Origin: Candidatus Omnitrophota bacterium
Lineage (GTDB): Bacteria; Omnitrophota; Gorgyraeia; 2-01-FULL-45-10
Length of the DNA stretch: 64,000 nt
Direction of reading: 5' to 3'
Assembly: GCA_030695905.1 (NCBI GenBank)
Contig: JAUYOL010000036.1
Coordinates: 54,814-118,813 of the forward strand
The notes beneath the pieces are model-generated. The model did no database searches. It saw only the letters and a program-made list of their open reading frames with translations, and was not told where the DNA came from. A program made the translations under genes and the position numbers. Numbering within the stretch: position 1 is the stretch's first letter; each line of letters starts with the position of its first letter. This document shows, piece by piece, positions 6,975-56,054 of the stretch.

Positions 6975-6975
6975 T

Positions 6976-16278: not shown

Positions 16279-17007
16279 TCATTTTTGCCTTATAAAGATA
16301 AGATTTGAATACTTATCGTCAAGACGGTGCTGTTGAGATTTTTCAAACCCGATGGCTGTCAGGAAATTTGTTATTTTACTATACCGCTCCGTATCGGATT
16401 CAATCAATATACTTTTTACTCTGGGGAGTAATTTCACGGCCCCCTGCAATATCTCATATTCATTACCATCAACATCAAGTTTTATATGATCTATCTGCGG
16501 CAAGTTGAATTCCTCCGCAAAATCATCCAGCGAGTAAGAAAGAACGTGCTGGATCCAGTTATCGCCTATTACTGTATTTACAATAGTATTGCAAGATCCG
16601 CCTTCGGACGTCTGATTATATGAAAAAGCGTTTATGCGCTTATCGCTGTACAAGGCGATATTAAACGGAATAATACTGGTAAACCTGTTTGCTAGTATGT
16701 TTTTCTCCAGCATATAAAAATTAAAAATGGACGGCTCAAAGGCATAAACAAGCCTGCAGTATCTGGATGCTACCAAAGAGTACGCGCCTACGTTGGCCCC
16801 GATATCAACAAAAACGTCATTTTTCCCGAACGTTTCTATCCATTTTATGGTCCCCGGTTCCTTGGCGCATGAATTAAGGCGCAGATTATCACACATCAGG
16901 ATATCGAATTTCGCGTAATCTAATTTATGAATGATTTTAATCTTTTTGATTGTGTCCGCTACAATAGATTTTGACCTGTTTTTTAAAGAATTCCACGATA
17001 GCTTCAT
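16279..17007 (-). CDS. FkbM-family SAM-dependent methyltransferase
   Basis: VFVDIGANVGAYSL...AFEPSIFNFYMLEKNI is the FkbM-domain signature. Confidence 0.7.
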   Translation of the reverse strand: MKLSWNSLKNRSKSIVADTIKKIKIIHKLDYAKFDILMCDNLRLNSCAKEPGTIKWIETFGKNDVFVDIGANVGAYSLVASRYCRLVYAFEPSIFNFYMLEKNILANRFTSIIPFNIALYSDKRINAFSYNQTSEGGSCNTIVNTVIGDNWIQHVLSYSLDDFAEEFNLPQIDHIKLDVDGNEYEILQGAVKLLPRVKSILIESDTERYSKITNFLTAIGFEKSQQHRLDDKYSNLIFIRQK

Positions 17008-18566: not shown

Positions 18567-19592
18567 TTACTTTTTTATTGCCGCGATCCTCACATGTGAA
18601 CTTAATTGAAAATGCTGCAAATACTCCTGAAGCGAGCGCAGAGACTCTTTGCCTCTATTATCAAAAATATATTTCCAAAAACCGTCGATAGATATACCAC
18701 GATCTTTCTCGTACTCCCTCTTGACAGTCTCAACGTCAAACCTGCCCGGAGTGCTCACTTCGATTATTTCAAAACCGGCGTTTTTTATCCCGGAGATCAT
18801 GGCCTCCAGCGACAATATGTTTAACCTGTCGGGGACTATAACGTTAGGAGAGATATCCCTCAAGACTTGATATTCAAACCCGCTTGCAGTAACGGACGTA
18901 ATGATAAACAGGCCGTTCTTTGCGCAGGAACGATATGCTAAATCAAACAGATCCTTAGGCGAAAAAACCCTTTCTATTATTTCAAAGGCAGCGAAAATGT
19001 CCACCTTACCGGCGAATTCTCCGGTGTTTTTTAAAATTTTTGCGTTCTTTAACAACAGATCTTCTTGTTCATAGCACTGCGGCATCAATGAAATGGACGA
19101 AGAAAAGACACCGGATTCATTAAGTTCTTTTAGAAAATCCGGATACCTGGTGCCGTAATCTAAAAATATCCCTTTCTTGGAAAGATACTCTCCGACCAAA
19201 TCGATAAGCCACTGGGTACGATAAGAAAAGACATTTTGTGCGCGCGTTTCCGAAGTTTTTTTGAAAAAAACTTCCCTAAGGAATTTTCCGGAACTGGAAT
19301 CTTTATAGAAATTCCTCAGCGCTTCTTCGCTGGGACGCGGAGAAGCATACCAGGAACCGCAGATACCGCATACATGATAGGTAAAACCATTTTTAACAAA
19401 ATGCCTCTCCTCTTTTTTAGACAGGCAACCCGGGCATTTAATATCCGTCAACAGCGATTTATCAGAAAAATATTGTTTTATGTCCTTAACAACCAGCTTC
19501 TTGTACTCATTGTAGATATGCTCTGGCCGAATCTCCGATTCTTTTAAATCATCTAAAAATACTACATTTCTCATATTTTCCCCCTTCCGCAA
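18567..19592 (-). CDS. SAM-dependent methyltransferase with N-terminal zinc-ribbon (sugar C-methyltransferase-like, TylCIII-type architecture)
   Basis: CPGCLSKKEERHF...HVCGICGSWYASPRP Cys4 ribbon followed by a Rossmann methyltransferase fold (FLDYGTRYPDFL...). Confidence 0.45.
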   Translation of the reverse strand: MRKGENMRNVVFLDDLKESEIRPEHIYNEYKKLVVKDIKQYFSDKSLLTDIKCPGCLSKKEERHFVKNGFTYHVCGICGSWYASPRPSEEALRNFYKDSSSGKFLREVFFKKTSETRAQNVFSYRTQWLIDLVGEYLSKKGIFLDYGTRYPDFLKELNESGVFSSSISLMPQCYEQEDLLLKNAKILKNTGEFAGKVDIFAAFEIIERVFSPKDLFDLAYRSCAKNGLFIITSVTASGFEYQVLRDISPNVIVPDRLNILSLEAMISGIKNAGFEIIEVSTPGRFDVETVKREYEKDRGISIDGFWKYIFDNRGKESLRSLQEYLQHFQLSSHVRIAAIKK

Positions 19593-20641
19593 AGATCTGA
19601 AACACCGCCGGCATTTATGTTCTTATCATCGGCATATATCCTCTGGACCAGGTCCATTGTCTTTATCGCGTCATCCACCCCGCCATTAGTGATCGGCTTA
19701 TCCTCTGCCACGCACTCTACAAACTCGCTGATCTCAGCTATCCAGGAGTCGTCGTCATCATAATAAACCATATTTTCCTGAGGATTAGGCATGGGGTAAT
19801 TATTTTTGTCAAAAATACACCTGGCTATCTTTAATGTCTCCCTGCCATATGTCCGCGTTGAGGAAAGGATCCCGTCTATCTCCAAATACCCTTTTTCCAT
19901 ATATATCTCCAGCAGAAATTTATGCCTCCACTGTGTTGCCGAAGAATGAATCATCGCGGTCTGCCCGGTCCCGGCGTTGCGCAGCAACGCGAAGACATTA
20001 TCCTCGACTTCCACCTTCCAGTACGAATTACCGACAAAGCTTTTAACCTCATCAAATTCTCCGCAAAAATAACGGAAGAGGTCGAGCATGTGGATCCCCT
20101 GGTCTATCAATATACCCCCTCCGGACAGCGCTTTCTTATTGCGCCAATCTAAATCATAACCGGCTCCTCCGGCTTTGCCATATATGCCACGCATCCACAT
20201 TATATTCCCTAATCTGGCGCTCTTTACAATTGACCTGGCCTCTTTAACACCTTCGTGATAACGGTGGTTAAAACCGAATTTTACCTTTACCGAAGGATTG
20301 TTGACGGATGAGCGCTGAATCGCCTTTACATCTTCCAGGGTACAGCCTGGCGGTTTCTCGCTGAACACGTGAATCCCGCGCGATATAGCCTCAACGGCAA
20401 TCTCCGGTATGTGCCGGTTATAAGAACATATGAACACGATATCCGGTTTTTTATCCAAAACTTTTCTAAAATCATCGAAAAACGGCACGCCCGGCTGCTG
20501 CCACACACCGGGGTTGATATCGCACACGCCCGTCAATTCAAGGGCGGGATGGCGATCGACGCATTCATGGCGTATCTTTCCCACCTTGCCGTAGCCGATA
20601 ATCCCGACCTTATACTTTTTTTTCAATCTGTTCGTCGTCAT
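19571..20641 (-). CDS. Gfo/Idh/MocA-family NAD(P)-dependent oxidoreductase (sugar dehydrogenase)
   Basis: KVGIIGYGKVGKIRHE...ELTGVCD N-terminal dinucleotide-binding motif. EKP active-site motif (FSEKPPG). Confidence 0.8.
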   Translation of the reverse strand: MTTNRLKKKYKVGIIGYGKVGKIRHECVDRHPALELTGVCDINPGVWQQPGVPFFDDFRKVLDKKPDIVFICSYNRHIPEIAVEAISRGIHVFSEKPPGCTLEDVKAIQRSSVNNPSVKVKFGFNHRYHEGVKEARSIVKSARLGNIMWMRGIYGKAGGAGYDLDWRNKKALSGGGILIDQGIHMLDLFRYFCGEFDEVKSFVGNSYWKVEVEDNVFALLRNAGTGQTAMIHSSATQWRHKFLLEIYMEKGYLEIDGILSSTRTYGRETLKIARCIFDKNNYPMPNPQENMVYYDDDDSWIAEISEFVECVAEDKPITNGGVDDAIKTMDLVQRIYADDKNINAGGVSDLCGRGKI

Positions 20642-22134
20642 TTTGTAAAATATTTATCCTGATAAATCTTCTTAAGCATATTGAACATGCGGTTGCCCTC
20701 ATCGTCAAACTTTTCAGCTCTCTTTATCTGCTGCCAATATTCCTTCGGCATGCGGGCATATAAAGCAAACGTCCTTTGCAGTCCCCTTACCTCTTCTTTG
20801 GATAATTGAGGCATATCCAATGACACGTCTACGTTGATAGAGCCGGGGGTAAAACCCTCAGATATAAAGCCCTTTTCAACACAAAGTTTATACAAGGGTG
20901 TGCCGTGAAAAGGGGCGAAAGTAGCGGCATTTACAGTATCAAAAACAAGCTGACGGTTCAATCCAATAGTATCAAAAATCAGCTCCCGGGTTTCACCGGG
21001 GAATCCTATTATATTATTAACCGTTAAGGGTATTCCGACGTCGGCTATTATCTTCGATGCCTTTATCATCTTATCATTATCGAATCTTTTCTTTAGCACC
21101 TTCTTCCGAAACTCATCATTGCCGTGCTCGAGCCCCATGGACATGCGGTGGCACCCCACCTCTTTAAGTTTTTTTATCTTGTATTTAGTAATCACCTCGA
21201 CTCGTGACTGCATCCAAAAAGGCAGTTTTATATCCGCATAAAAATCGATAAATTCTTCAAACTCATCATCGGTAAGAGTTAAAAAAGTATCGGAAGCAAA
21301 ATAAACATATTCAGCATTCCATTTCTTTACCAAATACTGCACTTCTTCCTTGATCTTCTTCATGGATTTTTTCCTGAAAAATACTCCGGCATCACTGTCA
21401 CGATACAGCTGTGAAGTCGACGGAGAATTACAAAAAGTGCAGGAATACGGACATCCCCTGTTAGTTTCTATCGGTATTGTCAAATATACCTTGCCTGCCA
21501 TGGGGCGGAAAAATCTCTGCTTCTCAAATAAGTCGTAATCGGGAATTGGCAGCCCGTTCAGATCTATGGGCTTTTTTAATTTATTGACTATTATCCTGCC
21601 GTCTTTTTTGATGACCAGGTTCTCTACGCCAAAACAATCTTTGCCTTCCGACAAACGCTTGCACACCTCAATCAGGGCGTCTTCTCCTTCACCGCGGCAT
21701 ACCATGCTAATATTTTTGTTTGACAGGATAATTTCCGGCGCAAAAGTAGCGAATACCCCGCCGGCAAGAACAGGGATATCAAATCTTTCAATGGCTTTTA
21801 TCATGCGAAGAGCGATCGGATATGTGCATTCCAGGATAGAAATGGTAATCAGGTCCGGCTTAAAATCCTGCACTTTTTTGACAAGATCGTCTTCAAAGAG
21901 CCCTTCATTAAGCCTTACGTCTCTTTCTCCATAATCAAAAGGACGGACCTGAAGATTTTCCTGCTTGGCATCATCCGATCCCCTCTCTTTTTTGTCGGCA
22001 TAAAAAGTAGTATCAAACAAGTCCGCTTCAAAACCATTTTGCTTGAGTAAAGCTGTAAATATGCCGATAGAGATCGGCGGCGGATTTAAAAGTTTACCGT
22101 TGGGATATAAAAGCAAAGCTTTAAAAGGTTTCAT
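20638..22134 (-). CDS. Cobalamin (B12)-binding radical SAM enzyme (class B)
   Basis: ALLLYPN...PDLITISIL B12-binding domain. IETNRGCPYSCTFCNS radical-SAM motif. 498 aa. Confidence 0.8.
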   Translation of the reverse strand: MKPFKALLLYPNGKLLNPPPISIGIFTALLKQNGFEADLFDTTFYADKKERGSDDAKQENLQVRPFDYGERDVRLNEGLFEDDLVKKVQDFKPDLITISILECTYPIALRMIKAIERFDIPVLAGGVFATFAPEIILSNKNISMVCRGEGEDALIEVCKRLSEGKDCFGVENLVIKKDGRIIVNKLKKPIDLNGLPIPDYDLFEKQRFFRPMAGKVYLTIPIETNRGCPYSCTFCNSPSTSQLYRDSDAGVFFRKKSMKKIKEEVQYLVKKWNAEYVYFASDTFLTLTDDEFEEFIDFYADIKLPFWMQSRVEVITKYKIKKLKEVGCHRMSMGLEHGNDEFRKKVLKKRFDNDKMIKASKIIADVGIPLTVNNIIGFPGETRELIFDTIGLNRQLVFDTVNAATFAPFHGTPLYKLCVEKGFISEGFTPGSINVDVSLDMPQLSKEEVRGLQRTFALYARMPKEYWQQIKRAEKFDDEGNRMFNMLKKIYQDKYFTK

Positions 22135-22951
22135 ATTTTAAGTTGGTTTTACCCAGCATGCCGTATTTCTCCGGCATCAGGACGTTAAAAGGTATATGTA
22201 TTATATCTATAACCGGATCGACCGACCTTACAAACTCGTGTATTTGGGCCAGATTACCGGGAGTATCAGTGACTTTTGGAATCAGGGGCACCCTTACGGA
22301 TACATGTTTCTTTGCCTCATGCAAACGCCTAAAATTATCCAAAATACATCCGTTTGACCTGCCTGTATATTTTTCATGAAGCTCGGGATCGATAAATTTC
22401 AGATCAAACAGGAAAAGATCGACAAAAGGCAAAATTTTCATGAAGGCTTCGGGCTCGGAATAACCGCTGGTATCCAAGGCCACGTTTATTCCGTTTTTCT
22501 CCGCAAGACTTGCCAATTCACAGGAAAAGTCTATCTGAAACAGCGGTTCGCCCCCGGAAATCGTTACCCCTCCTCCGGACATCTCATAATAACTTTTATC
22601 GCTAAGCGCCTGATGAATAATCTCCTCGGCTGGCAATTCCATGCCTGACCATAAAAGCGCTTTCAAACTGCAATTATTGACACACAAACCGCAACGATCG
22701 CAATCATCGCTTTTAAAAACAATCTTATCCTGCCAGTCAAAACATTTTTTCGAACAAAGCTCCACGCATCTGCGGCACCCTGCGCAACGCTCGCGCAAAA
22801 ACAAGACCTCGGAAAACCGCGGGATATTTTCCGGATTATGGCACCAGACACAATTAAGGGGGCAGCCTTTTAAAAAAATCGTGGTACGGATGCCCGGCCC
22901 GTCATGCAGGGAAAACTTTTGTACCCTGGTAATAAAACCTTTTGCGCTCAT
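22121..22951 (-). CDS. Glycyl-radical-enzyme activating enzyme (PflA family) with two ferredoxin-like 4Fe-4S motifs
   Basis: HDGPGIRTTIFLKGCPLNCVWCHNPE (classic GRE-AE CxxxCxxC). Two additional clusters, CAGCRRCVELCSKKC and CDRCGLCVNNCS. 4-nt overlap with the upstream GRE gene. Confidence 0.85.
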   Translation of the reverse strand: MSAKGFITRVQKFSLHDGPGIRTTIFLKGCPLNCVWCHNPENIPRFSEVLFLRERCAGCRRCVELCSKKCFDWQDKIVFKSDDCDRCGLCVNNCSLKALLWSGMELPAEEIIHQALSDKSYYEMSGGGVTISGGEPLFQIDFSCELASLAEKNGINVALDTSGYSEPEAFMKILPFVDLFLFDLKFIDPELHEKYTGRSNGCILDNFRRLHEAKKHVSVRVPLIPKVTDTPGNLAQIHEFVRSVDPVIDIIHIPFNVLMPEKYGMLGKTNLKYETF

Positions 22952-24960
22952 TGCGCCCTCGCTATCACATGGTCCTGCATTTCTTTGCTTAACAAGACAA
23001 AGTAGTAAGAAAAACCCCAGACGCGGACGATAAGGTCTTTGTATCTATCGGGATGCTTTTGCGCGTCTAAAAGCTTTTGTTTATCCAAAATATTAATATT
23101 TAAAACACACCCCCCTTTTTGGCAAAACACTTTAACCAGAGATATCAGGATGCTCTCAGGATGCTCGATCTCTTTGAAAACCGTAAGCGGCAGATTTAAA
23201 TGTAAAGTCGACCCAAATACCTGTTCACTTAAATTTAATTTACAAACGGAATTTATCACAGCGGTCGGACCTTTAAGAGCCGTACCGGGAGTAGGTGATA
23301 TATGCTCCCCCACCAAAGAGCCGAATTCGCGACCGTCAGGCGTTGCGCCGACGCTATACGCCGTATGATTGAATAAATGATTATAAAGCCCCGGCAAGAT
23401 TGGCCGTCCCGTGCGATCCTTATGCTCCTGCACCCATAAAGCGAATTTTCCGGCGATATCAACTGCCAGTTTATCCACGAAATCGTCATCATTACCGAAC
23501 TTAGGGGCGCCCTTGCAAAGACCCTGCAAAACGCGATAATCCTGAAAATTATTACGCAGGGCCGAAAGAAGGTCTTCCCGGCAAATATTCTTTTTGTCAT
23601 AGATTAAATATTTGACCGCCGCTAAGCTATTTACGGCCGTACCCAATGAACCTATGAAAAGCCCGTAAGTGTGATAACAGGACGGGTTTCTATATGGTTC
23701 CGTGGCATTTTCCAGAACATCAGGCATTGTTGCGGCGGTGAATAAACGCATGGGGTAAGCATCGCTGTTATAAGGGTCTTTAAGCATGACCCTTATCTGA
23801 TATTTTATCTGTTTTAAATAAGCCTCATAGAATTCATCGAAGCTTTCCATTTTTAAAAAATCGCCTGTGCTCAGCCCTTTTCTAATAGGCGATCCTACAT
23901 CAATTGAATCCTGCATCGAAGAATAATACTGCATCTTCTTTTTATCGGGAATATTCTCCGCACCATTAAACAGAACATGTTCGACGGCTTTAACGCAATC
24001 TATGTAACGAAACCAGGTCTCTCCGCACCCGTCGAGGATTATTTCAGAACAGCCGTCGTTACAATAGTTATAAGCGATTTTCTCAGGACGGCCGCATAGC
24101 TTTAATCCCTTAATAATAAAGTCGTCGTTAAATACGGTACATATGCCCCTGCCGGTAAGCTGCAGGCGAGCAACAAGTTCCAGCAGTCTCGGCGTACTAT
24201 TCTTGTGTAAACGAACATTAATTTTTGGCTCGATGTATTTGTTGATGATCATGGATTCCAGAATGATGTAGCTGATGTCATTAGTCTGGTCGTTGCCATC
24301 TGCATCCTGCCCTGAAAGCATAATATTCTGTAAGGTGTCGCCTACCCCCGATCCGCGTTTTTCAAAACGAAACAAAAGTTCATCCACGATCTTTTTTGCT
24401 TCGTGGCAGGTAAGGATATTTCTTCCGACGTCATTCTTATAAAAATGGAAAAGATGCTGATCTGTGCGCCCGACAGTAGAAGTTCCTATCCGGAAGATCA
24501 CGGCAAACCAGTAAAGCTGACATGCCTCGAGGAACGTCTGTGGGGCCCTTTCAGTCAAAGCAACACAAGTCTTATGGATTTCTTTTAACCCGAGTTTTTG
24601 CGCAGCCAAAGAGAATTTTTTCACGATCTCGATCACGGCCGAATAAACCTGTGCTATAAGCAACAGGTATTCCTTCTCATTGCCATTGAATTTTTGGGCA
24701 TTGTCTAAAGCCTCTTTTTTAATTCCGGCAAATCCCAGAGAAAGAAGCCTGCGCATGCCCAGCGGGTAATGAAAGTTATCATGGTTGCGCGGCCAGACCG
24801 GATAAGGGGGAGAAACAAATGGACCGGCCAGATAAGAATCTGGGCCGACGTCTATCCCGATCTTATTAAGCCAGTCGAGATACATCTCATTATCCTTTTT
24901 AATAGTTTGGATGACAGTATTTGTTATAGGCATAATATTCCGATTACTAATTAAGCACAA
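22948..24960 (-). CDS. Glycyl radical enzyme, short (670 aa) PFL-like family member of unknown specificity
   Basis: C-terminal HPDRYKDLIVRVWGFSYYFVLLSKEMQDHVIARAQ aligns with the PFL glycine-radical domain ([32 protein letters not shown]); Gly is retained in RVWGF. ATPDGREFGSLVGEHISPTPG matches PFL NTPDGRRAGAPFGPGANP. Candidate Cys loop NDGCSEI. A cognate activase lies immediately downstream. Confidence 0.75.
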   Translation of the reverse strand: MCLISNRNIMPITNTVIQTIKKDNEMYLDWLNKIGIDVGPDSYLAGPFVSPPYPVWPRNHDNFHYPLGMRRLLSLGFAGIKKEALDNAQKFNGNEKEYLLLIAQVYSAVIEIVKKFSLAAQKLGLKEIHKTCVALTERAPQTFLEACQLYWFAVIFRIGTSTVGRTDQHLFHFYKNDVGRNILTCHEAKKIVDELLFRFEKRGSGVGDTLQNIMLSGQDADGNDQTNDISYIILESMIINKYIEPKINVRLHKNSTPRLLELVARLQLTGRGICTVFNDDFIIKGLKLCGRPEKIAYNYCNDGCSEIILDGCGETWFRYIDCVKAVEHVLFNGAENIPDKKKMQYYSSMQDSIDVGSPIRKGLSTGDFLKMESFDEFYEAYLKQIKYQIRVMLKDPYNSDAYPMRLFTAATMPDVLENATEPYRNPSCYHTYGLFIGSLGTAVNSLAAVKYLIYDKKNICREDLLSALRNNFQDYRVLQGLCKGAPKFGNDDDFVDKLAVDIAGKFALWVQEHKDRTGRPILPGLYNHLFNHTAYSVGATPDGREFGSLVGEHISPTPGTALKGPTAVINSVCKLNLSEQVFGSTLHLNLPLTVFKEIEHPESILISLVKVFCQKGGCVLNINILDKQKLLDAQKHPDRYKDLIVRVWGFSYYFVLLSKEMQDHVIARAQ

Positions 24961-25724
24961 AGGTATCCGCCGTCAACCGGTATTACGGCACCGTTGAGAT
25001 AGTCGGACATCGGCGAAGATAAGAATATTACAATACCTTTTAGATCCTCGCCCTTCCCCCAGCGTCCCAGCGATATTCTTTGCAAGATCGCGGCGTTGCG
25101 TTTTTGATCCTGCTGCAGGGGCAATGTCAAATCCGTAGCCATAAAGCCCGGAGCTACAGCGTTAACATTGATGCCGTATTTGCCCAGTCCGTTGGCGAAG
25201 CTTTTAGTCAAGCCGATAATCCCGTGTTTCGACGCGACATAAGACGGCACTCTTAAACCGCCCTGAAAAGAAAGCATGGAGGCCAGATTGATAATCTTTC
25301 CGGATCTCTGTTTAATAAATATCTTAGCTGCCACCCTGGATAAATAAAACGGGACGGTTAAATTTATCTTCAGAACATCCTGCCAGTCGGTGTCGCTGAA
25401 ATCCTCTACTTCACCGCGGCGGCTTATGCCCGCGCTATTAATAAGTATATCTAAACGGGAAAATTCTTTTTTCACCTGATTTACAACCTTCTCGAGGTCT
25501 TTCTCGGATGCCTGCAAAAGGTCGACCTTGATCCGTTCGAAAACAACGCCAAGCCTTTTTCCCAGTTTAGGCAAATAGTCGTTTTCCGAGCGATCCAGGG
25601 CAACGACATCGGCCCCGGCCTCAAGCAACCCTTCGGCAATTGACCGCCCCAACCCTTTTGAGGTACCGGTTATCAAAACGACTTTCCCCTTCAAACCAAA
25701 TTTATCCAGCAACTTATTTTTCAT
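24951..25724 (-). CDS. Short-chain dehydrogenase/reductase (classical SDR)
   Basis: KVVLITGTSKGLGRSIA (TGxxxGxG); NSAG; YVASKHG (YxxxK). Confidence 0.8.
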   Translation of the reverse strand: MKNKLLDKFGLKGKVVLITGTSKGLGRSIAEGLLEAGADVVALDRSENDYLPKLGKRLGVVFERIKVDLLQASEKDLEKVVNQVKKEFSRLDILINSAGISRRGEVEDFSDTDWQDVLKINLTVPFYLSRVAAKIFIKQRSGKIINLASMLSFQGGLRVPSYVASKHGIIGLTKSFANGLGKYGINVNAVAPGFMATDLTLPLQQDQKRNAAILQRISLGRWGKGEDLKGIVIFLSSPMSDYLNGAVIPVDGGYLCA

Positions 25725-26485
25725 AGGTTCCCGTAGCTCCTAAAAAAAGGATCGTTCTCCATGATCTTCGAGACCGCCTCGCGATCCTGCGGAGTATCGA
25801 TCCCCTTAGTCTTATTGGGAGACAAGATCACCTTAACCTTGATCCCGGTTTCTATAAACCGCATCATGTCATCGGACTCGGCGATCTCCAGAGGCGTTTC
25901 TTTCATGGTTAAATACTTCAGCGCTATCTCCCTGGACAAGCCATAAAGTCCCAGCTGCTTGTAATGCCCGCGCGCCTTCCCGTAAGGGATGGGCAGGCGC
26001 GAGAAATATAGAGCAAACCCGTTTTGATCAAAAACCACCTTAACATTGTTGTAACTATTTATCTCCTCCTCGCCTTCCAAGATTTCAATAAGGTTAACGC
26101 AGAAAATGTCTTTCTCTTCAAGAAATGGTTTTACCAGTAAATCCAGCGTATCCGGGTCAAGCATGGGCTCATCGCCCTGTATGTTCAAAACAACGTCAAA
26201 AGCAATGCCGGCCTTATCCAGTTTCTGACAGGCTTCGGCAATGCGATCCGTGCAGCGCGTATGTTTGGAACTTGTCATGATCACCTTTGCGCCAAACGCC
26301 AAGGCCTTTTCTTTTATCTCGGTATCACAAGTAGCTATATAAATATCGCTGATATTTTTATTAAGCCTCGCCCGCCGCCAAACATGCTCTATCATGGTCT
26401 TGCCGCAGATATCCGCAAGAGGTTTCCCCGGGAAACGGCTTGATCCCATGCGGGCGGGGATCATAGCAATAATTTTCATAGACAA
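25721..26485 (-). CDS. kdsB: 3-deoxy-manno-octulosonate cytidylyltransferase-like CMP-ulosonic-acid synthetase (KdsB family)
   Basis: Near-collinear with E. coli KdsB motifs: IPARMGSSRFPGKPLADICGKTMIEHV, QGDEPM, VKVVFDQNGFALYFSRLPIP, GIDTPQD. Confidence 0.8.
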   Translation of the reverse strand: MSMKIIAMIPARMGSSRFPGKPLADICGKTMIEHVWRRARLNKNISDIYIATCDTEIKEKALAFGAKVIMTSSKHTRCTDRIAEACQKLDKAGIAFDVVLNIQGDEPMLDPDTLDLLVKPFLEEKDIFCVNLIEILEGEEEINSYNNVKVVFDQNGFALYFSRLPIPYGKARGHYKQLGLYGLSREIALKYLTMKETPLEIAESDDMMRFIETGIKVKVILSPNKTKGIDTPQDREAVSKIMENDPFFRSYGNL

Positions 26486-27237
26486 CTCCTAATCTCCCTT
26501 AAACATTTTTTGGTATATTCGCCCAAAAAGAGAAAATCCACCCCAAAACCTATAAACTTAACCCCCTCCTTTACCCTCTCCTTGACCAAGACGGGCCGCG
26601 GCTCCACAACATGCTGGCCCATAAGATAACCAAACTTTTTTGATTTCCGATGGATCTCTTTAAGCGCAGACTTCACTCTGGTATCGGAAAAATCCCCAGG
26701 ACAGCCCAGCGAAGCGGAAAGGTCATACAGCCCTATGATAAAACCATCCACGCCTTCAACGCTCATGATCTCTTCAAGATTTTCAACGGCTTTAATATGC
26801 TCCACCTGTACAATAACAATGCTTTTTTTCTGGTTCCAGTCCCTGTACTTTTTAAAATCAAGGCTATAACCCTGCGCACGGGTGAGCCCTGCCCCTCTTG
26901 TGCCAATAGGGGGATATTTCACAGCATTGACACACTTTTGGGCGTCAGCCTTTGAATTAACAAGCGGCACCAAAACACCGTGGGCTCCGGCATCCATAAA
27001 TCTTTTAATAATATCATGATCATTCTGCCTGACCCGCACCAGTGGGGTTACCCCGCAAAGTTCGACCACCCTGATCAGTTCAGCAGCCTGGGCAAAAGAA
27101 AGCTGGCTATGCTCAGTGTCTACGACCAACCAGTCAAAACCTAACTTGGCCATGATCTCGGCAACCGCGCAGTCCGCGAGAGTAATCCATGTGCCTATCG
27201 TCACGGCGCCTTTGGCGAGCCTGTTCTTCAGATCCAT
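26476..27237 (-). CDS. HpcH/HpaI-family class II (metal-dependent) pyruvate aldolase
   Basis: GTWITLADCAVAEIMAKLGFDWLVVDTEHS...RV...DAGAHGVLVP pattern of HpcH/HpaI/GarL aldolases. 253 aa. Confidence 0.7.
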   Translation of the reverse strand: MDLKNRLAKGAVTIGTWITLADCAVAEIMAKLGFDWLVVDTEHSQLSFAQAAELIRVVELCGVTPLVRVRQNDHDIIKRFMDAGAHGVLVPLVNSKADAQKCVNAVKYPPIGTRGAGLTRAQGYSLDFKKYRDWNQKKSIVIVQVEHIKAVENLEEIMSVEGVDGFIIGLYDLSASLGCPGDFSDTRVKSALKEIHRKSKKFGYLMGQHVVEPRPVLVKERVKEGVKFIGFGVDFLFLGEYTKKCLREIRSCL

Positions 27238-27239
27238 AT

Positions 27240-28520
27240 CTATCCCTTTCTTAGTTTTTTAAACTCATTCAAAATATCGTTTGCCATGTTTTCTATTATC
27301 GTATCCGGTTCGTTTCCGCCGGCAACCCATTTCCTGCAGAATTGGCTTATATCTTTGTGTGCGCAGCTTTTTTCCCCTCTTGCCTTTAAAAAAGCCAGAA
27401 GATCCTCATATTTATTACAGCAATTAAATCCGTCTTTAAATATATTTACAACTATACCGGCGGATTGCCAGAAATCCCCGATATCATATATAACGATCTT
27501 TCTGTGTCCTTCCGGCAAGAAGTCAAAAAACGCGCTTGTAATCATCGATATTATGAAATCTACGTGCTCTAAATAGCAGACCAGAGGGTCGTCCTCCAGG
27601 ATGTAAAAATCATTAAACCCGACTTCTCTCATTACACGCCTTATCTTATCCTCATATCGGTACCTGGGGTGCGGTTTGATCAGAAGCGCCGCATTTCCCA
27701 GCTCTTTAACGGCCCTTACGACATCGGAGATATTCCTGTATTTTTCAGCGTCAGCCCTGCCTGTTTCCAGGTTCGGGCAGATATATAATATCCTGGTTTT
27801 GGACGATACACCCATCTGCCCAATGTTCTTTCTGACATCTTCCAAAAAAACTCTCTTAATGCTTTTTTTCCAGTTTATGTCATAACGCGGATCGCCGAAG
27901 ACAAGTATCGGCGTATCCTTCTCGATATGTTCGGCGCAATATTTCTGCCTTTCATGTTCATGCGGGACATAGTACCTGTCAAAATTCAGCTGTTTTTGCT
28001 CAAGCTCCAGCGGATAACAGGGCAACCCGTTGAATATATCAAAGCTTTTAATACCCAATTCGTCCGATATTTTCTTTATATAATAACTTCCATAGGGATA
28101 ATCGACATACTTCACAAGGCTTATGGTATCAAAAAATCCAATGGCGGGCGACAGCCCTGTCAACATTTCCCTTATGAATTTTTCTGTCATCTTGAGCTTC
28201 AATAATTTCGATCGCAGGCCTATGCATTTGTTTCGGAGGAACGCGCATTTTAAATATTTAAAAAATTCCACAAAGAGGCTTATGGTTCTTAAAATTAGAT
28301 CTTTTCTCATGAAAAAGGAATAATCCATGACATTAAGTCCATAGGCCCGGATGATCTTCATCTGCGCCCTGGAAAGTCCGTCTCTATAATTATAATTCTG
28401 GTAAAACATAAGCGGCCTTGCGCCCTTCTCTTTCAAGCTTACCATAAGGGGCAGGCACCTCTCGATCCCGTTGCTTACATGGGACCAAAAAACAAAATCA
28501 CATTTTTGTTTATTTTGCAC
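27240..28520 (-). CDS. Hypothetical protein, possible capsule-biosynthesis / CMP-ulosonic-acid-dependent transferase (GT-B-like); function unassigned
   Basis: 426-aa ORF in operon context between the aldolase and the Wzx flippase; no diagnostic motif recognised. Call is positional only. Confidence 0.3.
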   Translation of the reverse strand: MQNKQKCDFVFWSHVSNGIERCLPLMVSLKEKGARPLMFYQNYNYRDGLSRAQMKIIRAYGLNVMDYSFFMRKDLILRTISLFVEFFKYLKCAFLRNKCIGLRSKLLKLKMTEKFIREMLTGLSPAIGFFDTISLVKYVDYPYGSYYIKKISDELGIKSFDIFNGLPCYPLELEQKQLNFDRYYVPHEHERQKYCAEHIEKDTPILVFGDPRYDINWKKSIKRVFLEDVRKNIGQMGVSSKTRILYICPNLETGRADAEKYRNISDVVRAVKELGNAALLIKPHPRYRYEDKIRRVMREVGFNDFYILEDDPLVCYLEHVDFIISMITSAFFDFLPEGHRKIVIYDIGDFWQSAGIVVNIFKDGFNCCNKYEDLLAFLKARGEKSCAHKDISQFCRKWVAGGNEPDTIIENMANDILNEFKKLRKG

Positions 28521-29991
28521 TTGTTTTTCTCTCGTATATGCGAAGCATATGATAAATTATGTTCGTCCTTGCATTAATATATATCAGAAATGGCAGCATA
28601 GCAATACTTAAAAGGACGCTTTTTACCAGTACGCAACCATATATATTGGGCACCTTGACAAAAAATTCCAGCAAAAGAATAACTATCGAGGAATAAATAA
28701 AAGGCGTGGTTATCTCTATAAAAAATAAAACGATCTCCTTCGGTTTCATGAAATAGCGTAGAGCGTAAACCTGTAAGAGCGAGAAATAGATTAAAGATGC
28801 TATGGAAGTTGCCCAGGCCACGCCATATATACCAAAACCCTTCCTAATCAGGATGTAATTACCGATCACGCTCACAATTATACATACCAATATCACGCCA
28901 ACAATTTTTTTATAGTCCTTGATTACTATCAGAAAATGCACCGCCTGCGGCGAGCAGGAGCGGAAAAACATATCTATCAGCAATATCTGTATTGCAAGGA
29001 TCCCAGGCGTAAATTTAGGCAAAACCAGTTTTATGAAAACCGGCGCAATAAAAAATATCAGGCCAAGCAGCAATGGCAGGATGTAAGCATTTACCTTTGG
29101 CGGTATTATCGCATATTTCTTTATATCTTCCATATTCTGCCGCTTGCCATAGTCCTTAAGAATGTAAGGATAGAGCACCGTGCCGAAACTGGAAAGCTTG
29201 GCTATGTAATTTTTGGCCATTATAGAGATACTGTAATATCCAACAAAAACAACGCCTATCATCTTAGCTATCATGATCCTGTCCACACTTATCAAAATAC
29301 CGTCCAGGAATCCAATGACCGTGATCGGAAAACCTACCTTGATCAGCTCGGGCAGGCCTCTAAAATCCATGCTCAGGCTGACTTTATATTTCACAAGCAT
29401 ATGCATAAAAATTATATTCAACGCCGACACGGCCATTATCGCCATGTACAAGCCGTAAATATTGTAATTCCTGACCAATAGCATGACTAAGATCAAATTT
29501 ATCGCCGCATCAAAAATGATCGACTTGCTCAAAGCGTTAAAATTATTCCTAGCACGTAGAAGCAGCATATAATACCCGCAAAGCCGGTCCAGTATAATGT
29601 ATACTGACAGGATAAGAAGCCCTGCCACGACCTCCGCGGGATACCTATTCCGGAAAACTATCGCGCTGACCAACAACATAAGGCTGGCCGCCAAAGAGGC
29701 CAAAAATATAAGGCTGAACGCTAGATCTTTTACGCGCTCTGCTTTTGCGCGGTTGTCCCGGCCCAGATTAAAAGGTATCTCGTAACCGGCGCCTTCCGCG
29801 ACACCCATGGATATATACGATGAATAATCAGAGATAATCTTTAAAATGCTCCAGATGCCTGTGTAAAACGGCCCCAGGAAACGGCGCATTGCAATAGAAG
29901 TAAAAAATCCTATTCCCTGCGAAACATAACGGGCAAAAGTGAGTTCAAACGTCGCCTTTATTATGGATTTTTTTGTTTCGCTCATTATCAA
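28510..29991 (-). CDS. Wzx-type oligosaccharide flippase (MOP/PST superfamily)
   Basis: 493 aa, about 12-14 TM helices, N-terminal ...FARYVSQGIGFFTSIAMRRFLGPFYTGIWSI... typical of polysaccharide-biosynthesis (PST) exporters. Confidence 0.7.
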   Translation of the reverse strand: MIMSETKKSIIKATFELTFARYVSQGIGFFTSIAMRRFLGPFYTGIWSILKIISDYSSYISMGVAEGAGYEIPFNLGRDNRAKAERVKDLAFSLIFLASLAASLMLLVSAIVFRNRYPAEVVAGLLILSVYIILDRLCGYYMLLLRARNNFNALSKSIIFDAAINLILVMLLVRNYNIYGLYMAIMAVSALNIIFMHMLVKYKVSLSMDFRGLPELIKVGFPITVIGFLDGILISVDRIMIAKMIGVVFVGYYSISIMAKNYIAKLSSFGTVLYPYILKDYGKRQNMEDIKKYAIIPPKVNAYILPLLLGLIFFIAPVFIKLVLPKFTPGILAIQILLIDMFFRSCSPQAVHFLIVIKDYKKIVGVILVCIIVSVIGNYILIRKGFGIYGVAWATSIASLIYFSLLQVYALRYFMKPKEIVLFFIEITTPFIYSSIVILLLEFFVKVPNIYGCVLVKSVLLSIAMLPFLIYINARTNIIYHMLRIYERKTSAK

Positions 29992-31841
29992 TCCTTATCA
30001 AAATAGTCAATCGCACTGCGATCGGGTAAAGGTATTTCGAGCACGAAATCCCTCGCCGGCGCATCGATAAAATTAGCTATAACGCTGATCGCCTCCGGTA
30101 TTGTGTTAAATATCTTAAGAGAACTTCCAAAAAAAGATTCGATACTTTCGTCGATCTTAAATGTCTTATGCCATAGCGACATCACTGGTATCCCGGATAC
30201 TGCGGCTTCAAATAACCCGGTTGACGGGTAGTCAAATATAATCCGTTCCGGACCATGGAGACACTTCGCCAACGGCCTCGTCTTTACGGAGATATTGCTG
30301 TATTTTTTATCTTTGATATAAGAAAGCAGGGATCGATGCTGCCAGCTCTGGCCGGACGCGTACTTGTATATAAAATGCCTATCTTCTATAGCCGCAAAAT
30401 AGTCTATAATCGATTTTTGCATTTCATAATACCATGGAAGCGTATAGAAATTTACATTATATACATTAACGCCTGTAAATACTTTTGTAGGCACATACAT
30501 TATAACGTTATTCTGACACCGCCTGTTCTTATACCTACTTTTAATCGCGCCAAGATAATGTGACGATCGAGATATGTTGCATTTAGCCGGAAAACCAGGC
30601 CGAATACAGTCTTTGAAGTACCTTTCCGAAATACTATCCATCGCAAAATAGTGATCTACAAGATCCAGCTCCGTGACCCCCGCAACTTTTGTGTCATACG
30701 TTATCCCATGCTGAAAAACTACCCTTTTATTATGATCCGCAGCCGCCAAAAAAGCGCCTATCGAATCCTCTTCAGAGCTGGAACGCGCAACAACATAATC
30801 AATGTTCTCTTTTTTGTAAAAATTTTTTAATAATAATATTTCTGTCAAGTTGCGCAAACAAACATGTTCAATAAAGTGCTTAAAATACGGCGTGATAACC
30901 GAAGAAATATCCAGGCCACATTTACCACTTATCCAGCCAATCACGTCTTTTTTCATGCGTATATCACTGAACGCCTTAACGCAATCACTTGTAATATCTT
31001 TTTGTCCGTCCGTATTGCATGATAGTTTTAGCACATCTTTTTGAATAATATCACTGATGAGAACAACCCTGTTTTGATCCTTGAAAAATACCCGGTTACC
31101 GCGCGCTATACTATCCTTTATTATCATATCTATGCCCAGCCATCCGGCATGAAGTACAAATAAGCTCAGGCGCGCCCTGTCTGCCGGCTTTTGGATAAAT
31201 TTATTGATCTTACCGTATTTAAAAAAGTAATAGACGGATTTACAGCGCAGTCTTTTTAAAATTTTCTTTATTTCTTTCACCAAACAGTGCAATTGATTGG
31301 CAGGAATATTTTCCTGCGCGCCGCACTTTATAGATAGCGGCGTACCGTATTTTTCGCATACCAAAGTGACTAATTTCTTAAAAAATGTTCTTTTATTATT
31401 GCTAAGATCGTAGAAATCATCCACTGCATTATCTTTTTTCTTTAAGCAGACGTAAACGATCGAATCGGGCTTTATATTAAAAAGAACCTCCCTCAACACG
31501 CGGGCCTGTATAATAATGGAATCAATAAAATATTTTAGCTGATAAAAGTGCGCCTTTGATAAGCCTATGTTATGCTCTCTGCAATAAGTTATATTCTGTT
31601 TGAGGATCTCATCAAAATAATTGAACCATTGCAACTGGTCATTGAAATATGCATCTTCTTCTGTTTTCAAATCGTCAACACTATAATAATCTTCTATTAA
31701 CTTATACTGAATGCCCGTACGCCCTAAATCATAACAGGCTTCCGGAGTCAGGGCTATAACCATATTATTTCCATAATCCACATCTGGAAGATGGTCTTCG
31801 ACCAAATAACATTTCTTACCGCTTTTAAAATTATTTATCAC
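29988..31841 (-). CDS. Hypothetical 617-aa soluble protein (orphan; candidate nonulosonic-acid transferase/Maf-like, unverified)
   Basis: Long uninterrupted ORF in operon context, no TM segments, no motif recognised. Confidence 0.5.
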   Translation of the reverse strand: MINNFKSGKKCYLVEDHLPDVDYGNNMVIALTPEACYDLGRTGIQYKLIEDYYSVDDLKTEEDAYFNDQLQWFNYFDEILKQNITYCREHNIGLSKAHFYQLKYFIDSIIIQARVLREVLFNIKPDSIVYVCLKKKDNAVDDFYDLSNNKRTFFKKLVTLVCEKYGTPLSIKCGAQENIPANQLHCLVKEIKKILKRLRCKSVYYFFKYGKINKFIQKPADRARLSLFVLHAGWLGIDMIIKDSIARGNRVFFKDQNRVVLISDIIQKDVLKLSCNTDGQKDITSDCVKAFSDIRMKKDVIGWISGKCGLDISSVITPYFKHFIEHVCLRNLTEILLLKNFYKKENIDYVVARSSSEEDSIGAFLAAADHNKRVVFQHGITYDTKVAGVTELDLVDHYFAMDSISERYFKDCIRPGFPAKCNISRSSHYLGAIKSRYKNRRCQNNVIMYVPTKVFTGVNVYNVNFYTLPWYYEMQKSIIDYFAAIEDRHFIYKYASGQSWQHRSLLSYIKDKKYSNISVKTRPLAKCLHGPERIIFDYPSTGLFEAAVSGIPVMSLWHKTFKIDESIESFFGSSLKIFNTIPEAISVIANFIDAPARDFVLEIPLPDRSAIDYFDKD

Positions 31842-40268: not shown

Positions 40269-40270
40269 CT

Positions 40271-48636: not shown

Positions 48637-48638
48637 TC

Positions 48639-50012: not shown

Positions 50013-50019
50013 AATAGTC

Positions 50020-52947: not shown

Positions 52948-52965
52948 GATTAGGATCTCCTTGAA

Positions 52966-53664: not shown

Positions 53665-53667
53665 GCC

Positions 53668-54663: not shown

Positions 54664-54709
54664 CTTCCTTTTATAGCCTACTATTATATCATTATAGGCG
54701 GGTGTATTT
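54664..54709 (-). promoter_or_regulatory. Candidate internal sigma70-like promoter/RBS upstream of gmd
   Basis: Minus-strand reading ...CCTATAATGATATAATAGTAGGCTATAAAAGGAAGGTGGAAAGT-ATG: two TATAAT-like hexamers and a purine-rich SD immediately 5' of the gmd start. One of the few non-overlapping gene junctions in the window. Confidence 0.25.
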
Positions 54710-56044: not shown

Positions 56045-56054
56045 GCGATATTCC

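Follow-up and report, generated by a model that had tools for sequence, protein, structure and literature searches.

The window analysed here, a 64 kb stretch of a Candidatus Omnitrophota MAG, contains a minus-strand glycan island that is home to two adjacent genes, one encoding an HpcH-family aldolase and the other a KdsB-type cytidylyltransferase (Table 1). A sequence-only reading had treated positions 24951-28520 as a unit comprising this pair, a short-chain dehydrogenase (SDR) and a 426-aa protein. All four ORFs are present on the minus strand at the coordinates it reported, but they cover just part of a conserved module, which also includes a GFO oxidoreductase, a GmhA-like isomerase, a PGDH-like dehydrogenase and an IMPase-family phosphatase between 13909 and 20641. 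From 28520 down to 13148 the genes are spaced by -34 to +24 nt, with the cytidylyltransferase ORF overlapping the aldolase stop by 4 nt, and this packing is consistent with a single operon.

Table 1. Genes of the module and its immediate context in the window
Feature	Protein	Position	Strand	Basis of assignment
617-aa LIC12162-like protein (context)		29988..31841	-	TIGR04331 weak match; PF27859 weak match
Wzx-type flippase (context)		28510..29991	-	Polysacc_synt_3
426-aa GT-B fold, TagF-like protein		27240..28520	-	Glyphos_transf 21.0 vs threshold 22.1
Class II HpcH/HpaI-family pyruvate aldolase	MDP3791531.1	26476..27237	-	253 aa; PF03328 HpcH_HpaI E=4.9e-34, 221/221 profile positions
KdsB-type (KpsU-like subfamily) CTP:ulosonate cytidylyltransferase	MDP3791530.1	25721..26485	-	254 aa; PF02348 CTP_transf_3 E=8e-44
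KduD-like short-chain dehydrogenase	MDP3791529.1	24951..25724	-	TIGR01832 KduD 302.7 bits, cut-off 338.85
Short glycyl radical enzyme (GRE), 1,2-eliminase (dehydratase) type	MDP3791528.1	22948..24960	-	PFL-like + Gly_radical domains; probable start 24933
GRE activating enzyme (radical SAM)		22121..22951	-	TIGR02494 297.7 bits vs cut-off 174
B12-binding radical SAM enzyme (probable C-methyltransferase or tailoring enzyme)		20638..22134	-	PF02310 + PF04055; homologues in 22/80 loci
GFO/IDH/MocA oxidoreductase, recurrent member		19571..20641	-	PF01408 + PF22725
Methyltransf_23 methyltransferase, recurrent tailoring enzyme		18567..19592	-	Family in 22/80 loci
Second B12-binding radical SAM enzyme		17032..18561	-	
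FkbM-type methyltransferase		16279..17007	-	PF05050
GmhA-like SIS sugar-phosphate isomerase		15652..16263	-	SIS_2 + SIS domains
PGDH-like D-2-hydroxyacid dehydrogenase (2HADH)		14721..15644	-	PF02826 + PF00389
IMPase-family phosphatase, proposed KdsC-like step		13909..14721	-	PF00459 E=1e-49

The enzyme next to the cytidylyltransferase had been read as a class II HpcH/HpaI aldolase rather than a KdsA/NeuB-type synthase, and the full-profile PF03328 match and intact catalytic residues bear this out. Specifically, H43, R68, E146 and D172 do not vary across 27 clade members and line up with the catalytic residues of YfaU/HpaI. Compared with HpcH/HpaI, GarL and YfaU/RhmA, the protein falls in a separate clade with at least 45% identity inside it, for which we found 431 loci in species genomes. 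Its identity to all characterised members is about 35%, and its scores against the HpaI, GarL and RhmA equivalogs (145-180 bits) are far below the cut-offs (369-441). We propose it as the enzyme that forms the carbon-carbon bond of a ulosonic acid.

The cytidylyltransferase was likewise correctly recognised as a KdsB homologue. In addition to its CTP_transf_3 match, it scores above the cut-offs of three KdsB models of NCBIfam (NF009905, 270.3 vs 255; NF003952, 258.9 vs 193; TIGR00466, 156.1 vs 155.2) and keeps the catalytic motifs PAR..SR.PGKP, QGDEP, FSR and DTP. The NCBI start, 26479 (252 aa), is the probable one. No NeuB- or KdsA-type synthase lies beside this gene; the nearest NeuB-type synthase is PseI, 8 kb upstream, within a separate pseudaminic acid gene set.

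The earlier reading had suggested a search for KdsB-HpcH gene pairs in other genomes. With the aldolase clade as anchor, we surveyed 80 loci of other species and found a CTP_transf_3 cytidylyltransferase beside the aldolase in approximately 77 (72 on the same strand by ORF clustering, plus 5 more by tblastn), at a distance of at most 3 kb in 62. Two non-orthologous classes of cytidylyltransferase occupy this one slot: a KdsB-type class (about 258 aa), downstream of the aldolase in approximately 52 loci, and a PseF/NeuA-like class (about 230 aa), upstream in 19. Aldolase and KdsB-type distances are correlated (Mantel r=0.555, p=0.001), and the two partners co-evolve. Carriers include Dehalococcoidia, Patescibacteria, Firmicutes (Peptococcaceae and Syntrophomonadaceae) and archaea, the latter represented by two unrelated Hadarchaeia contigs and a 91-kb Methanomethylovorans contig; these labels are those of the MAG records, at least one of which (L022) is wrong. 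The pair is thus present in taxa without LPS. In a search with a KdsA query sequence, neither the window nor any of 81 related loci gave a KdsA homologue. The pairing is not due to chance, and the proposal that an HpcH aldolase takes the place of the PEP-dependent synthase ahead of a KdsB-type CMP-transferase has strong comparative-genomic support from the conservation of the pair, the two enzyme classes in one slot, the non-LPS taxa, the Mantel correlation and the lack of KdsA at these loci.

Could the two genes nonetheless act in separate pathways? The KdsB homologue might activate pseudaminic acid or housekeeping Kdo while the aldolase works elsewhere, for example in a pyruvate-derived branch on a keto-sugar or in catabolism. 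The pseudaminic acid set is close by, no protein of the window reaches the cut-off of the PseF model, and HpcH aldolases are classically catabolic. However, the pseudaminic acid set has its own SpsF-like cytidylyltransferase (36658-37386), and a NeuB-type gene is nearby in only 11 of the 80 loci, while the other 69 keep the aldolase-cytidylyltransferase pair without one, as do organisms that have no LPS. Against a catabolic role, no hpa, gar or rhm genes were found in any locus looked at, and the aldolase is far under every catabolic equivalog. Genes of the clade always sit in glycan biosynthesis clusters, so the predicted direction of the reaction is synthetic. We consider separate roles for the two enzymes very improbable.

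The genes downstream of the pair recur to different degrees. The PGDH-like dehydrogenase is the third most conserved member of the module (51 of 80 loci); its best model is PGDH TIGR01327, at 202 bits against a cut-off of 454, and among PDB entries it matches 1WWK best (E=1.6e-51). A homologue of the GFO oxidoreductase is found on the same strand in 31 of the 80 loci and the GmhA-like isomerase in 20. The isomerase scores 115.9 bits against TIGR00441 gmhA (cut-off 209) and aligns with GmhA structures, with the His/acid/His positions kept. In other loci the phosphatase slot holds a HAD phosphatase or a DHQS-like enzyme, the latter with an SDR in six loci; the natural substrate of DHQS is a 3-deoxy-ulosonate phosphate. 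About one third of full-length loci have no recognisable phosphatase or isomerase.

The SDR, which had been described as flanking the pair, is not a core partner but part of an accessory set, with the GRE, that is confined to one subclade. Its orthologues (at least 68% identity) occur only in three loci (L002, L003 and L005), with an SDR at the equivalent position in a fourth (L082), and all four carry the GRE. The SDR is closest to KduD, an enzyme that acts on a 3-deoxy-hex-2-ulosonic acid. Like the glycyl radical 1,2-eliminases (B12-independent glycerol dehydratase, HypD and sulfopropanediol dehydratase), the GRE carries the Gly radical motif and the GCxE catalytic loop and is encoded next to an activase. 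Its C304 and E306 (GCxE) and R646-V-W-G649 do not vary among 15 orthologues, and C304/E306 align with the GCVE of glycerol dehydratase (1R8W). Its best models, PFL2/glycerol dehydratase, HypD and HpsG, are all far under cut-off; it differs from the known enzymes in having an N-terminal part shorter by approximately 120 residues (protein length 661-680 aa), in forming a separate clade whose next relatives are at 40% identity, and in its location in an anabolic glycan operon. To our knowledge, all characterised GRE eliminases are catabolic.

Two proteins are candidates for transfer of the activated sugar. The 426-aa protein had been put forward in this role; it is a TagF-like GT-B protein, rare among the loci (5 of 80), and a plausible transferase for a cytidine-nucleotide-linked donor. 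The closest known enzymes are the CDP-alditol phosphotransferases TagF/TarL and the GT-B transferases that use CMP-sugars, from which it differs in a sequence under the Pfam threshold and in having UDP-GlcNAc 2-epimerases as its top structural matches; the window also encodes no gene for CDP-alditol synthesis. Elsewhere this position is taken by other large proteins of GT-B or Maf-like type. The 617-aa LIC12162-like protein is a second candidate ulosonic acid transferase. Across the loci the transferases neighbouring the pair include Maf/MptE-like and TagF-like GT-B proteins, and the Maf/MptE-like family transfers CMP-nonulosonic acids and CMP-Kdo (PMC11339370).

On balance, the gene identities, catalytic residues, operon packing and cross-genome linkage make it probable that the module builds a CMP-2-ulosonic acid for a surface glycan by an aldolase-based route that needs no PEP. 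What the sugar is, and how each step runs chemically, we infer from homology and synteny. The GmhA-like isomerase would convert a ketose phosphate to an aldose phosphate acceptor, and the aldolase would join pyruvate enolate to this aldehyde. The resulting 4-hydroxy-2-keto acid, a 3-deoxy-2-ulosonate, would probably still bear its phosphate. The IMPase-family phosphatase would then remove the phosphate, in analogy with KdsC or Neu5Ac-9-P phosphatase, and the KdsB-type enzyme would use CTP to couple CMP to the anomeric 2-OH. One of the two candidate GT-B proteins may transfer the sugar, with the Wzx flippase exporting the unit. The GFO oxidoreductase, PGDH-like dehydrogenase, methyltransferases and B12-radical SAM enzymes may tailor or supply intermediates. 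In the Omnitrophota subclade, the GRE 1,2-eliminase, its activase and the KduD-like reductase would probably remove a hydroxyl, the GRE dehydrating a vicinal diol and the reductase reducing the resulting ketone.

The module might simply make Kdo. The Kdo pathway (KdsD-KdsA-KdsC-KdsB, with the capsule paralogues KpsF/KpsU) has the same order of isomerase, condensation of a C3 unit with an aldose, phosphatase and CMP activation by a KdsB/KpsU-type CTP_transf_3 enzyme. In a KdsA-independent version, the SIS protein would be an arabinose-5-phosphate isomerase, the aldolase would join pyruvate to arabinose 5-phosphate or arabinose, the IMPase or HAD phosphatase would play the part of KdsC, and the KpsU-like enzyme would make CMP-Kdo, or that of a stereoisomer, for a Kdo-containing glycan, as KpsF/KpsU do for E. 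coli group 2 capsules. The four functions correspond one-to-one; the KdsB models are passed, and the best PDB match of the cytidylyltransferase is KpsU itself (1GQ9, 37% identity). The chemistry also has a precedent in the orphan Kdo aldolase, EC 4.1.2.23, which interconverts pyruvate plus D-arabinose and Kdo (PMC12199768). However, in the published KdsB substrate-binding motif RHIGVYAYR (PMC7717453), our ORF has KQ in place of RH. EQLR, a conserved motif adjacent to this one in authentic KdsB, reads DMMR here. The changes are clade-wide: relative to authentic KdsB references that are few and all proteobacterial, K/R/Q-Q replaces R/K-H in 50 of 50 KdsB-type partners and DM[LMN]R replaces EQLR in 49 of 50. 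Furthermore, the isomerase is GmhA-like (heptose type) rather than KdsD-like with SIS plus CBS domains, the phosphatase is an IMPase or generic HAD protein rather than KdsC, the condensing enzyme is a metal-dependent pyruvate aldolase rather than PEP-dependent KdsA, and the module also occurs where LPS does not. The extra dehydrogenases, GRE and methyltransferases imply a modified sugar. We therefore regard ordinary Kdo or a stereoisomer of it as rather unlikely.

The simple scheme of pyruvate condensation and CMP activation does not explain the role of the highly conserved PGDH-like dehydrogenase. This enzyme, closest to phosphoglycerate dehydrogenases, could oxidise 3-phosphoglycerate to 3-phosphohydroxypyruvate, from which the phosphatase would free hydroxypyruvate; with hydroxypyruvate as donor, the aldolase product would not be 3-deoxy but a 3-hydroxy (Ko-like) 2-ulosonic acid, made without oxygen and activated by the KdsB-type enzyme. 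The dehydrogenase and a phosphatase of either family occur together in 34 of 38 loci, whichever acceptor-supplying genes are present, a pairing that suits this route equally well. Structures of hydroxypyruvate-using PF03328 aldolases have been solved (6R62, 'hydroxyketoacid aldolase'), and most carriers are anaerobes, in which the O2-dependent Kdo 3-hydroxylase could not work. On the other hand, the PGDH assignment is well under cut-off, the six loci with a DHQS-like enzyme and SDR in the phosphatase slot fit poorly with hydroxypyruvate formation, and donor preference is not separated by any sequence feature we compared. A hydroxypyruvate donor seems to us unlikely.

The pyruvate-based route that we favour has its chemistry in common with the HpcH/HpaI, GarL and YfaU/RhmA aldolases and the Kdo aldolase, which have the fold and the His/Arg/Glu/Asp catalytic set of the aldolase described here and combine pyruvate and an aldehyde into a 4-hydroxy-2-keto acid. 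It also resembles the nonulosonic acid pathways (NeuB/PseI/LegI with NeuA/PseF/LegF, or Kdn-9-P synthase plus phosphatase) in joining a C3 unit to an aldose, in CMP activation and in GT-B or Maf-type transfer; the second, PseF/NeuA-like cytidylyltransferase class adds to the likeness, and these pathways often share islands with the module, as PseI does here. Unlike them, the module has no NeuB-type synthase, and its carbon-carbon bond is predicted to come from pyruvate, not PEP. We found no literature precedent for an aldolase-based route to a CMP-ulosonic acid. If our proposal is correct, the module would represent an undescribed way to make an acidic cell-surface sugar that dispenses with the enzyme type used by every known route.

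The aldolase and the KdsB-type cytidylyltransferase overlap by 4 nt on the minus strand, and the two further frames named in the sequence-only reading, an SDR and a 426-aa protein, are present on the same strand. Packing is tight from position 28520 down to 13148, with intergenic gaps of -34 to +24 nt. We found that the 253-aa aldolase matches PF03328 (HpcH_HpaI) over the full TIM-barrel domain, residues 14-234, with an E-value of 4.9e-34 and a score of 118 bits (cut-off 25). Four residues, H43, R68, E146 and D172, do not vary among 27 clade sequences, and in alignments they fall on the catalytic His and Arg and on the metal-binding residues of YfaU and HpaI; the HpaI counterparts are H45 and R70 (catalytic) and E149 and D175 (metal-binding carboxylates). 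The full-domain match and the retained catalytic residues bear out the assignment to the class II HpcH/HpaI aldolases. The closest relatives in metagenomes, taking the best 120 matches, are 55-93% identical.

Such a gene might encode a specific catabolic aldolase (HpaI, GarL or RhmA). The protein scores far under the HpaI/GarL/RhmA equivalog cut-offs (180 against 369, 153 against 393, 150 against 407 and 145 against 441) and is roughly equidistant from all structurally solved family members. No hpa, gar or rhm catabolic genes were found in any of 80 aldolase loci from other species, and the gene context was a glycan cluster in all 80. On the low equivalog scores and this glycan, rather than catabolic, context, we did not assign it to any of these catabolic aldolases.

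The cytidylyltransferase matches PF02348 (CTP_transf_3) with an E-value of 8e-44 and exceeds three NCBIfam KdsB cut-offs: NF009905 (270.3 against 255), NF003952 (258.9 against 193) and, marginally, TIGR00466 (156.1 against 155.2). The nucleotide and catalytic motifs PAR..SR.PGKP, QGDEP and DTP, which form the site of the Mg-binding aspartates, are conserved in the clade and present here as MIPARMGSSRFPGKPL, LNIQGDEPM and GIDTP. On these grounds the protein is a KdsB homologue, as had been read from its motifs. In KdsB, K19 and D95/D219 are the catalytic Lys and Asp (PMC3149649), and FSR and RHIGVYAYR are substrate-binding motifs (PMC7717453). FSR is kept in the KdsB-type partner. KQ (K/R/Q-Q across the clade) stands in place of the RH (R/K-H) of RHIGVYAYR in all 50 aldolase-linked KdsB-type homologues, and DM[LMN]R in place of the adjacent conserved EQLR in 49 of the 50, EQLR being defined by its presence in three reference KdsB sequences, all proteobacterial. 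Set against this small, proteobacterial reference, the altered RH and EQLR motifs argue for a partner that would act on a sugar other than Kdo.

The earlier reading had proposed looking for kdsB-HpcH pairs in other genomes. A profile built from 27 aldolase relatives was run on 185,579 species genomes and gave 431 loci, of which we took the best 80 with 10-kb flanks; neighbors were scored by translated searches and by all-against-all clustering of the 1,263 ORFs in these 80 loci. The pair is found in approximately 77 of the best 80. ORF clustering placed a same-strand CTP_transf_3 gene beside the aldolase in 72 of the 80, and at five more loci (L053, L059, L072, L073 and L080) that gene was missed by crude ORF calling and detected by tblastn. 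The three loci lacking a CTP_transf_3 partner are two contig ends and locus L074. In 62 loci the aldolase and the cytidylyltransferase are no more than 3 kb apart. Because KdsB is usually present in one copy per genome of thousands of genes, chance adjacency is excluded at the observed rate. The loci number 78 when counted independently, since L018, L019 and L022 are the same DNA, 100% identical over 11-18 kb; two of them carry a Dehalococcoidia label, whereas L022 is filed under Nitrososphaeria. This archaeal assignment almost certainly reflects faulty binning, and we discarded L022 as archaeal evidence.

The partners split into two non-orthologous cytidylyltransferase classes. In about 52 loci the gene directly downstream of the aldolase encodes a partner of the KdsB-type class (about 258 aa); these proteins pass the NF009905 (KpsU-like) cut-off even in Peptococcaceae and Hadarchaeia. 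Those of the short class (about 230 aa), directly upstream of the aldolase in 19 loci, are distantly PseF/NeuA-like (76-81 bits). That the cytidylyltransferase family is swapped while the adjacency is kept is good evidence for a functional link in which the aldolase reaction is followed by CMP activation. The distances among aldolases and among KdsB-type partners are correlated (Mantel r=0.555, p=0.001), indicating that the two genes travel as a cassette. Carriers include Peptococcaceae, Syntrophomonadaceae, Acetivibrio, Patescibacteria and many Dehalococcoidia and, among archaea, a Methanomethylovorans contig of 91 kb and two unrelated Hadarchaeia contigs whose genes are arranged alike. Complete carrier genomes include OZ252023.1 (Terriglobia) and OY764159.1 (Syntrophales).

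Could the cytidylyltransferase instead belong to a canonical KdsA/KdsC/KdsD/WaaA setting in an LPS producer? With a hand-typed KdsA query, we found no KdsA homologue across the window or among 81 related loci, and homologues occur in Firmicutes, Patescibacteria, Dehalococcoidia and archaea; over the loci covered, this setting is not supported. A PEP-dependent synthase of the KdsA/NeuB type serving this cytidylyltransferase was rejected as well: in addition to the KdsA result, only 11 of the 80 loci have a NeuB-type gene less than 9 kb away, and the PseI of the window sits in a separate pseudaminic acid (Pse) set. Nor is the KdsB homologue the missing PseF of that upstream set, an assignment ruled out by the persistence of the pair where NeuB-type genes are absent and by the set having its own cytidylyltransferase. 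Pair conservation, the two partner classes and the KdsA result thus back the non-canonical pyruvate-aldolase route to a CMP-activated 2-ulosonic acid that had been proposed for this region.

The Pse set itself comprises PseB, PseC and PseI together with an aldo-keto reductase and an SDR, and no PseG was recognizable within 34420-41275. Its SpsF-like cytidylyltransferase fails the PseF cut-off, and the set also includes a xylose-isomerase-like TIM barrel fused to a PseH-like acetyltransferase.

Features of the window and recurrent partners of the aldolase; locus counts are over 80 loci, those of the recurrent partners from ORF clustering
Feature	Position	Strand	Loci (of 80)	NCBI annotation
GT-C membrane glycosyltransferases	3856-5445; 42343-57818	-		
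RtcB homologue and thymidylate-kinase-like ORF	6345-8568	-		
B12-binding radical SAM genes (four) and radical SAM fragment (one)	9592-11076; 17032-18561; 20638-22134; 54710-56044; 63198-63920	-		
IMPase-family phosphatase	13909-14721	-	15	
PGDH-like D-2-hydroxyacid dehydrogenase (2HADH)	14721-15644	-	51	
GmhA-like SIS isomerase	15652-16263	-	20	
GFO/IDH/MocA oxidoreductase (GFO)	19571-20641	-	31	
GRE activase	22121-22951	-		
Glycyl radical enzyme (GRE)	22948-24960	-		pyruvate formate lyase family protein
SDR	24951-25724	-		SDR family oxidoreductase
KdsB-type cytidylyltransferase	25721-26485	-		MDP3791530.1, 3-deoxy-manno-octulosonate cytidylyltransferase
Aldolase	26476-27237	-		MDP3791531.1, aldolase/citrate lyase family protein
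426-aa protein (possibly TagF-like)	27240-28520	-	5	
617-aa LIC12162-like protein	29988-31841	-		
Pse set	34420-41275	-		
TIM barrel/PseH-like fusion	35429-36661	-		
SpsF-like cytidylyltransferase	36658-37386	-		
GHMP kinase and NTP_transferase pair	61478-63201	-		
NAD-dependent epimerase			30	
HAD phosphatase			23	
'Cyclase' hydrolase			16	
DHQS-like enzyme			11	

The recurrent partners fall into three layouts. Layout I consists of the aldolase, the KdsB-type gene, (methyltransferases or radical SAM genes), GFO, the SIS isomerase, 2HADH and IMPase; layout II of the aldolase, the KdsB-type gene, 2HADH, the epimerase, the cyclase and HAD; and layout III of the short cytidylyltransferase, a Maf-like protein, the aldolase, 2HADH, SIS, an SDR, the DHQS-like enzyme and GFO. 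SIS with GFO occurs in 14 of 52 full-length loci, the epimerase with HAD or cyclase in 17, and both in one, so that the two sets are nearly exclusive. The window holds the full layout I set (GFO, SIS, 2HADH and IMPase), downstream of the region covered by the earlier reading. A phosphate-removing enzyme almost always accompanies 2HADH (34 of 38 loci), examples from L002-L081 being L007, L018, L028, L038, L049, L052 and L076; the occupant of this slot is an IMPase, a HAD phosphatase, or a DHQS-like enzyme with an SDR. In several loci this last combination replaces the phosphatase beside the PGDH-like dehydrogenase.

We favor a route to a CMP-2-ulosonic acid that relies on an aldolase and does without PEP, because of a match in pathway logic, the fit of a phosphorylated intermediate and the precedent of a Kdo aldolase. 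The isomerase, C3-adding enzyme, phosphatase and KdsB-type synthetase of the module repeat the logic of KdsD, KdsA, KdsC and KdsB in the Kdo pathway with unrelated proteins. DHQS naturally acts on a 3-deoxy-ulosonate phosphate, and a DHQS-like occupant of the phosphate-removal slot fits a phosphorylated ulosonate intermediate. For the aldol chemistry, the orphan Kdo aldolase EC 4.1.2.23 is a precedent. Judging from the GmhA-like isomerase, the product would be a C10 acid made from heptose 7-phosphate; a chain length of C8 or C9 is possible. Hydroxypyruvate as the aldolase donor, giving a 3-hydroxy product, would also fit, since the nearest relatives of 2HADH are phosphoglycerate dehydrogenases and a phosphatase is its near-constant companion. 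Comparative genomics gives good support to the aldolase module as a putative CMP-ulosonic acid pathway in which another kind of enzyme forms the backbone.

The 426-aa protein is a plausible candidate for the transferase, as had been suggested. Its sole hit is a TagF-family match below threshold. Two cytidylyltransferases but no CDP-alditol pathway are encoded in the window, which makes the 426-aa protein and the LIC12162-like protein of 617 aa reasonable choices as the two CMP-sugar transferases. The 426-aa protein is rare, with 23 homologues and few occurrences among the loci, and different large GT-B or Maf/MptE-like proteins hold the same position elsewhere. When the large proteins encoded upstream of the aldolase at other loci were compared with Pfam, most fell into no family, and the matches were to Maf/MptE-like and Glyphos_transf families only. 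Maf/MptE-like (DUF115) proteins, a family of flagellin nonulosonic-acid transferases, flank the aldolase and short cytidylyltransferase in Dehalococcoidia, Firmicutes and Desulfobacterota (loci L015, L029, L047, L052, L061, L066; L018-L025, L067 and L069).

The SDR is adjacent to the pair, as had been noted, but is not a core partner: orthologues of at least 68% identity occur only in L002, L003 and L005, with an SDR at the same position in L082, and all four loci bear the GRE. KduD (2-dehydro-3-deoxy-D-gluconate 5-dehydrogenase) is its best model and nearest family, yet the scores fall below the cut-offs (302.7 against 338.85 and 297.3 against 369), so the SDR is no member by score. The GRE is a complete enzyme of the 1,2-eliminase type, in which R646-V-W-G649 (RVxG) and C304 and E306 (GCxE) are invariant and the C304/E306 loop aligns with the GCVE of glycerol dehydratase; the adjoining activase scores 297.7 on TIGR02494, for which the cut-off is 174. 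The named subfamilies (HypD, HpsG, CutC and glycerol dehydratase) have cut-offs well beyond its scores: 267 against 1100, 247 against 1000, 210 against 1050 and, for TIGR01774, 276 against 678. Approximately 50 GRE orthologue clusters (56-92% identity, 661-680 aa) form a clade confined to aldolase/KdsB-type loci, and 15 of them come from contigs equal in length to those of the closest aldolase homologues. The next GRE clade, at 40% identity, has an unrelated regulatory context and was excluded. We infer that the GRE and the KduD-like SDR form a deoxygenation couple, radical diol dehydration being followed by ketone reduction, and the position of the GRE and its activase within a glycan operon suggests an anabolic, sugar-deoxygenating role.

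The entire 64-kb window is a single minus-strand glycan island, with a Pse set (PseB, PseC, PseI and WbuX/HisH/HisF), many glycosyltransferases, a flippase and five B12/radical SAM genes. These radical SAM genes imply that sugars are extensively C-methylated or otherwise modified by radical chemistry. The GT-C membrane glycosyltransferases are unusually dense (six PMT_2/ArnT-like, one GT87 and one YfhO), with GT2 genes interleaved. The GHMP kinase and NTP_transferase pair is similar to HddA/HddC, which belong to the GDP-heptose pathway, and lies 46 kb away from the GmhA-like isomerase. The RtcB RNA ligase homologue and the thymidylate-kinase-like ORF sit in the same orientation at the downstream end of the island.

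To our knowledge, a PEP-dependent synthase builds the backbone in all characterized routes to Kdo and to sialic, pseudaminic, legionaminic and Kdn acids, and genome mining for ulosonic sugars keys on that enzyme. A full-text literature search found no work tying an HpcH aldolase to CMP-sugar or nucleotide-sugar synthesis. Unassigned CMP-activated ulosonic acids are now detected by mass spectrometry (bioRxiv 10.64898/2026.04.20.719630), and the chemical space is therefore open; those sugars are diamino acids with no established tie to the aldolase module.

Read jointly, these results raise a serious possibility, falling somewhat short of a probable one, that PEP-independent ulosonic acid pathways make up a large unrecognized family, dispersed among anaerobic bacteria and archaea by gene transfer. 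A class II aldolase, and not a KdsA/NeuB-type synthase, would build the backbone of undescribed CMP-activated sugars, possibly C10 acids from heptose 7-phosphate or 3-hydroxy acids from hydroxypyruvate, and in the Omnitrophota subclade the GRE would deoxygenate the sugar anabolically. If the aldolase route is conserved, current surveys would be overlooking an entire class of acidic sugars on the surfaces of environmental bacteria and archaea. It would explain hundreds of '3-deoxy-manno-octulosonate cytidylyltransferase' annotations in LPS-free organisms, would give a genetic starting point for unassigned CMP-activated ulosonic acids, and may supply new biocatalysts for making ulosonic acids from pyruvate. 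In the GRE-bearing subclade, deoxy sugars may be reached by radical chemistry that needs no oxygen, which, if true, would be the first biosynthetic role of a GRE eliminase in glycan assembly.
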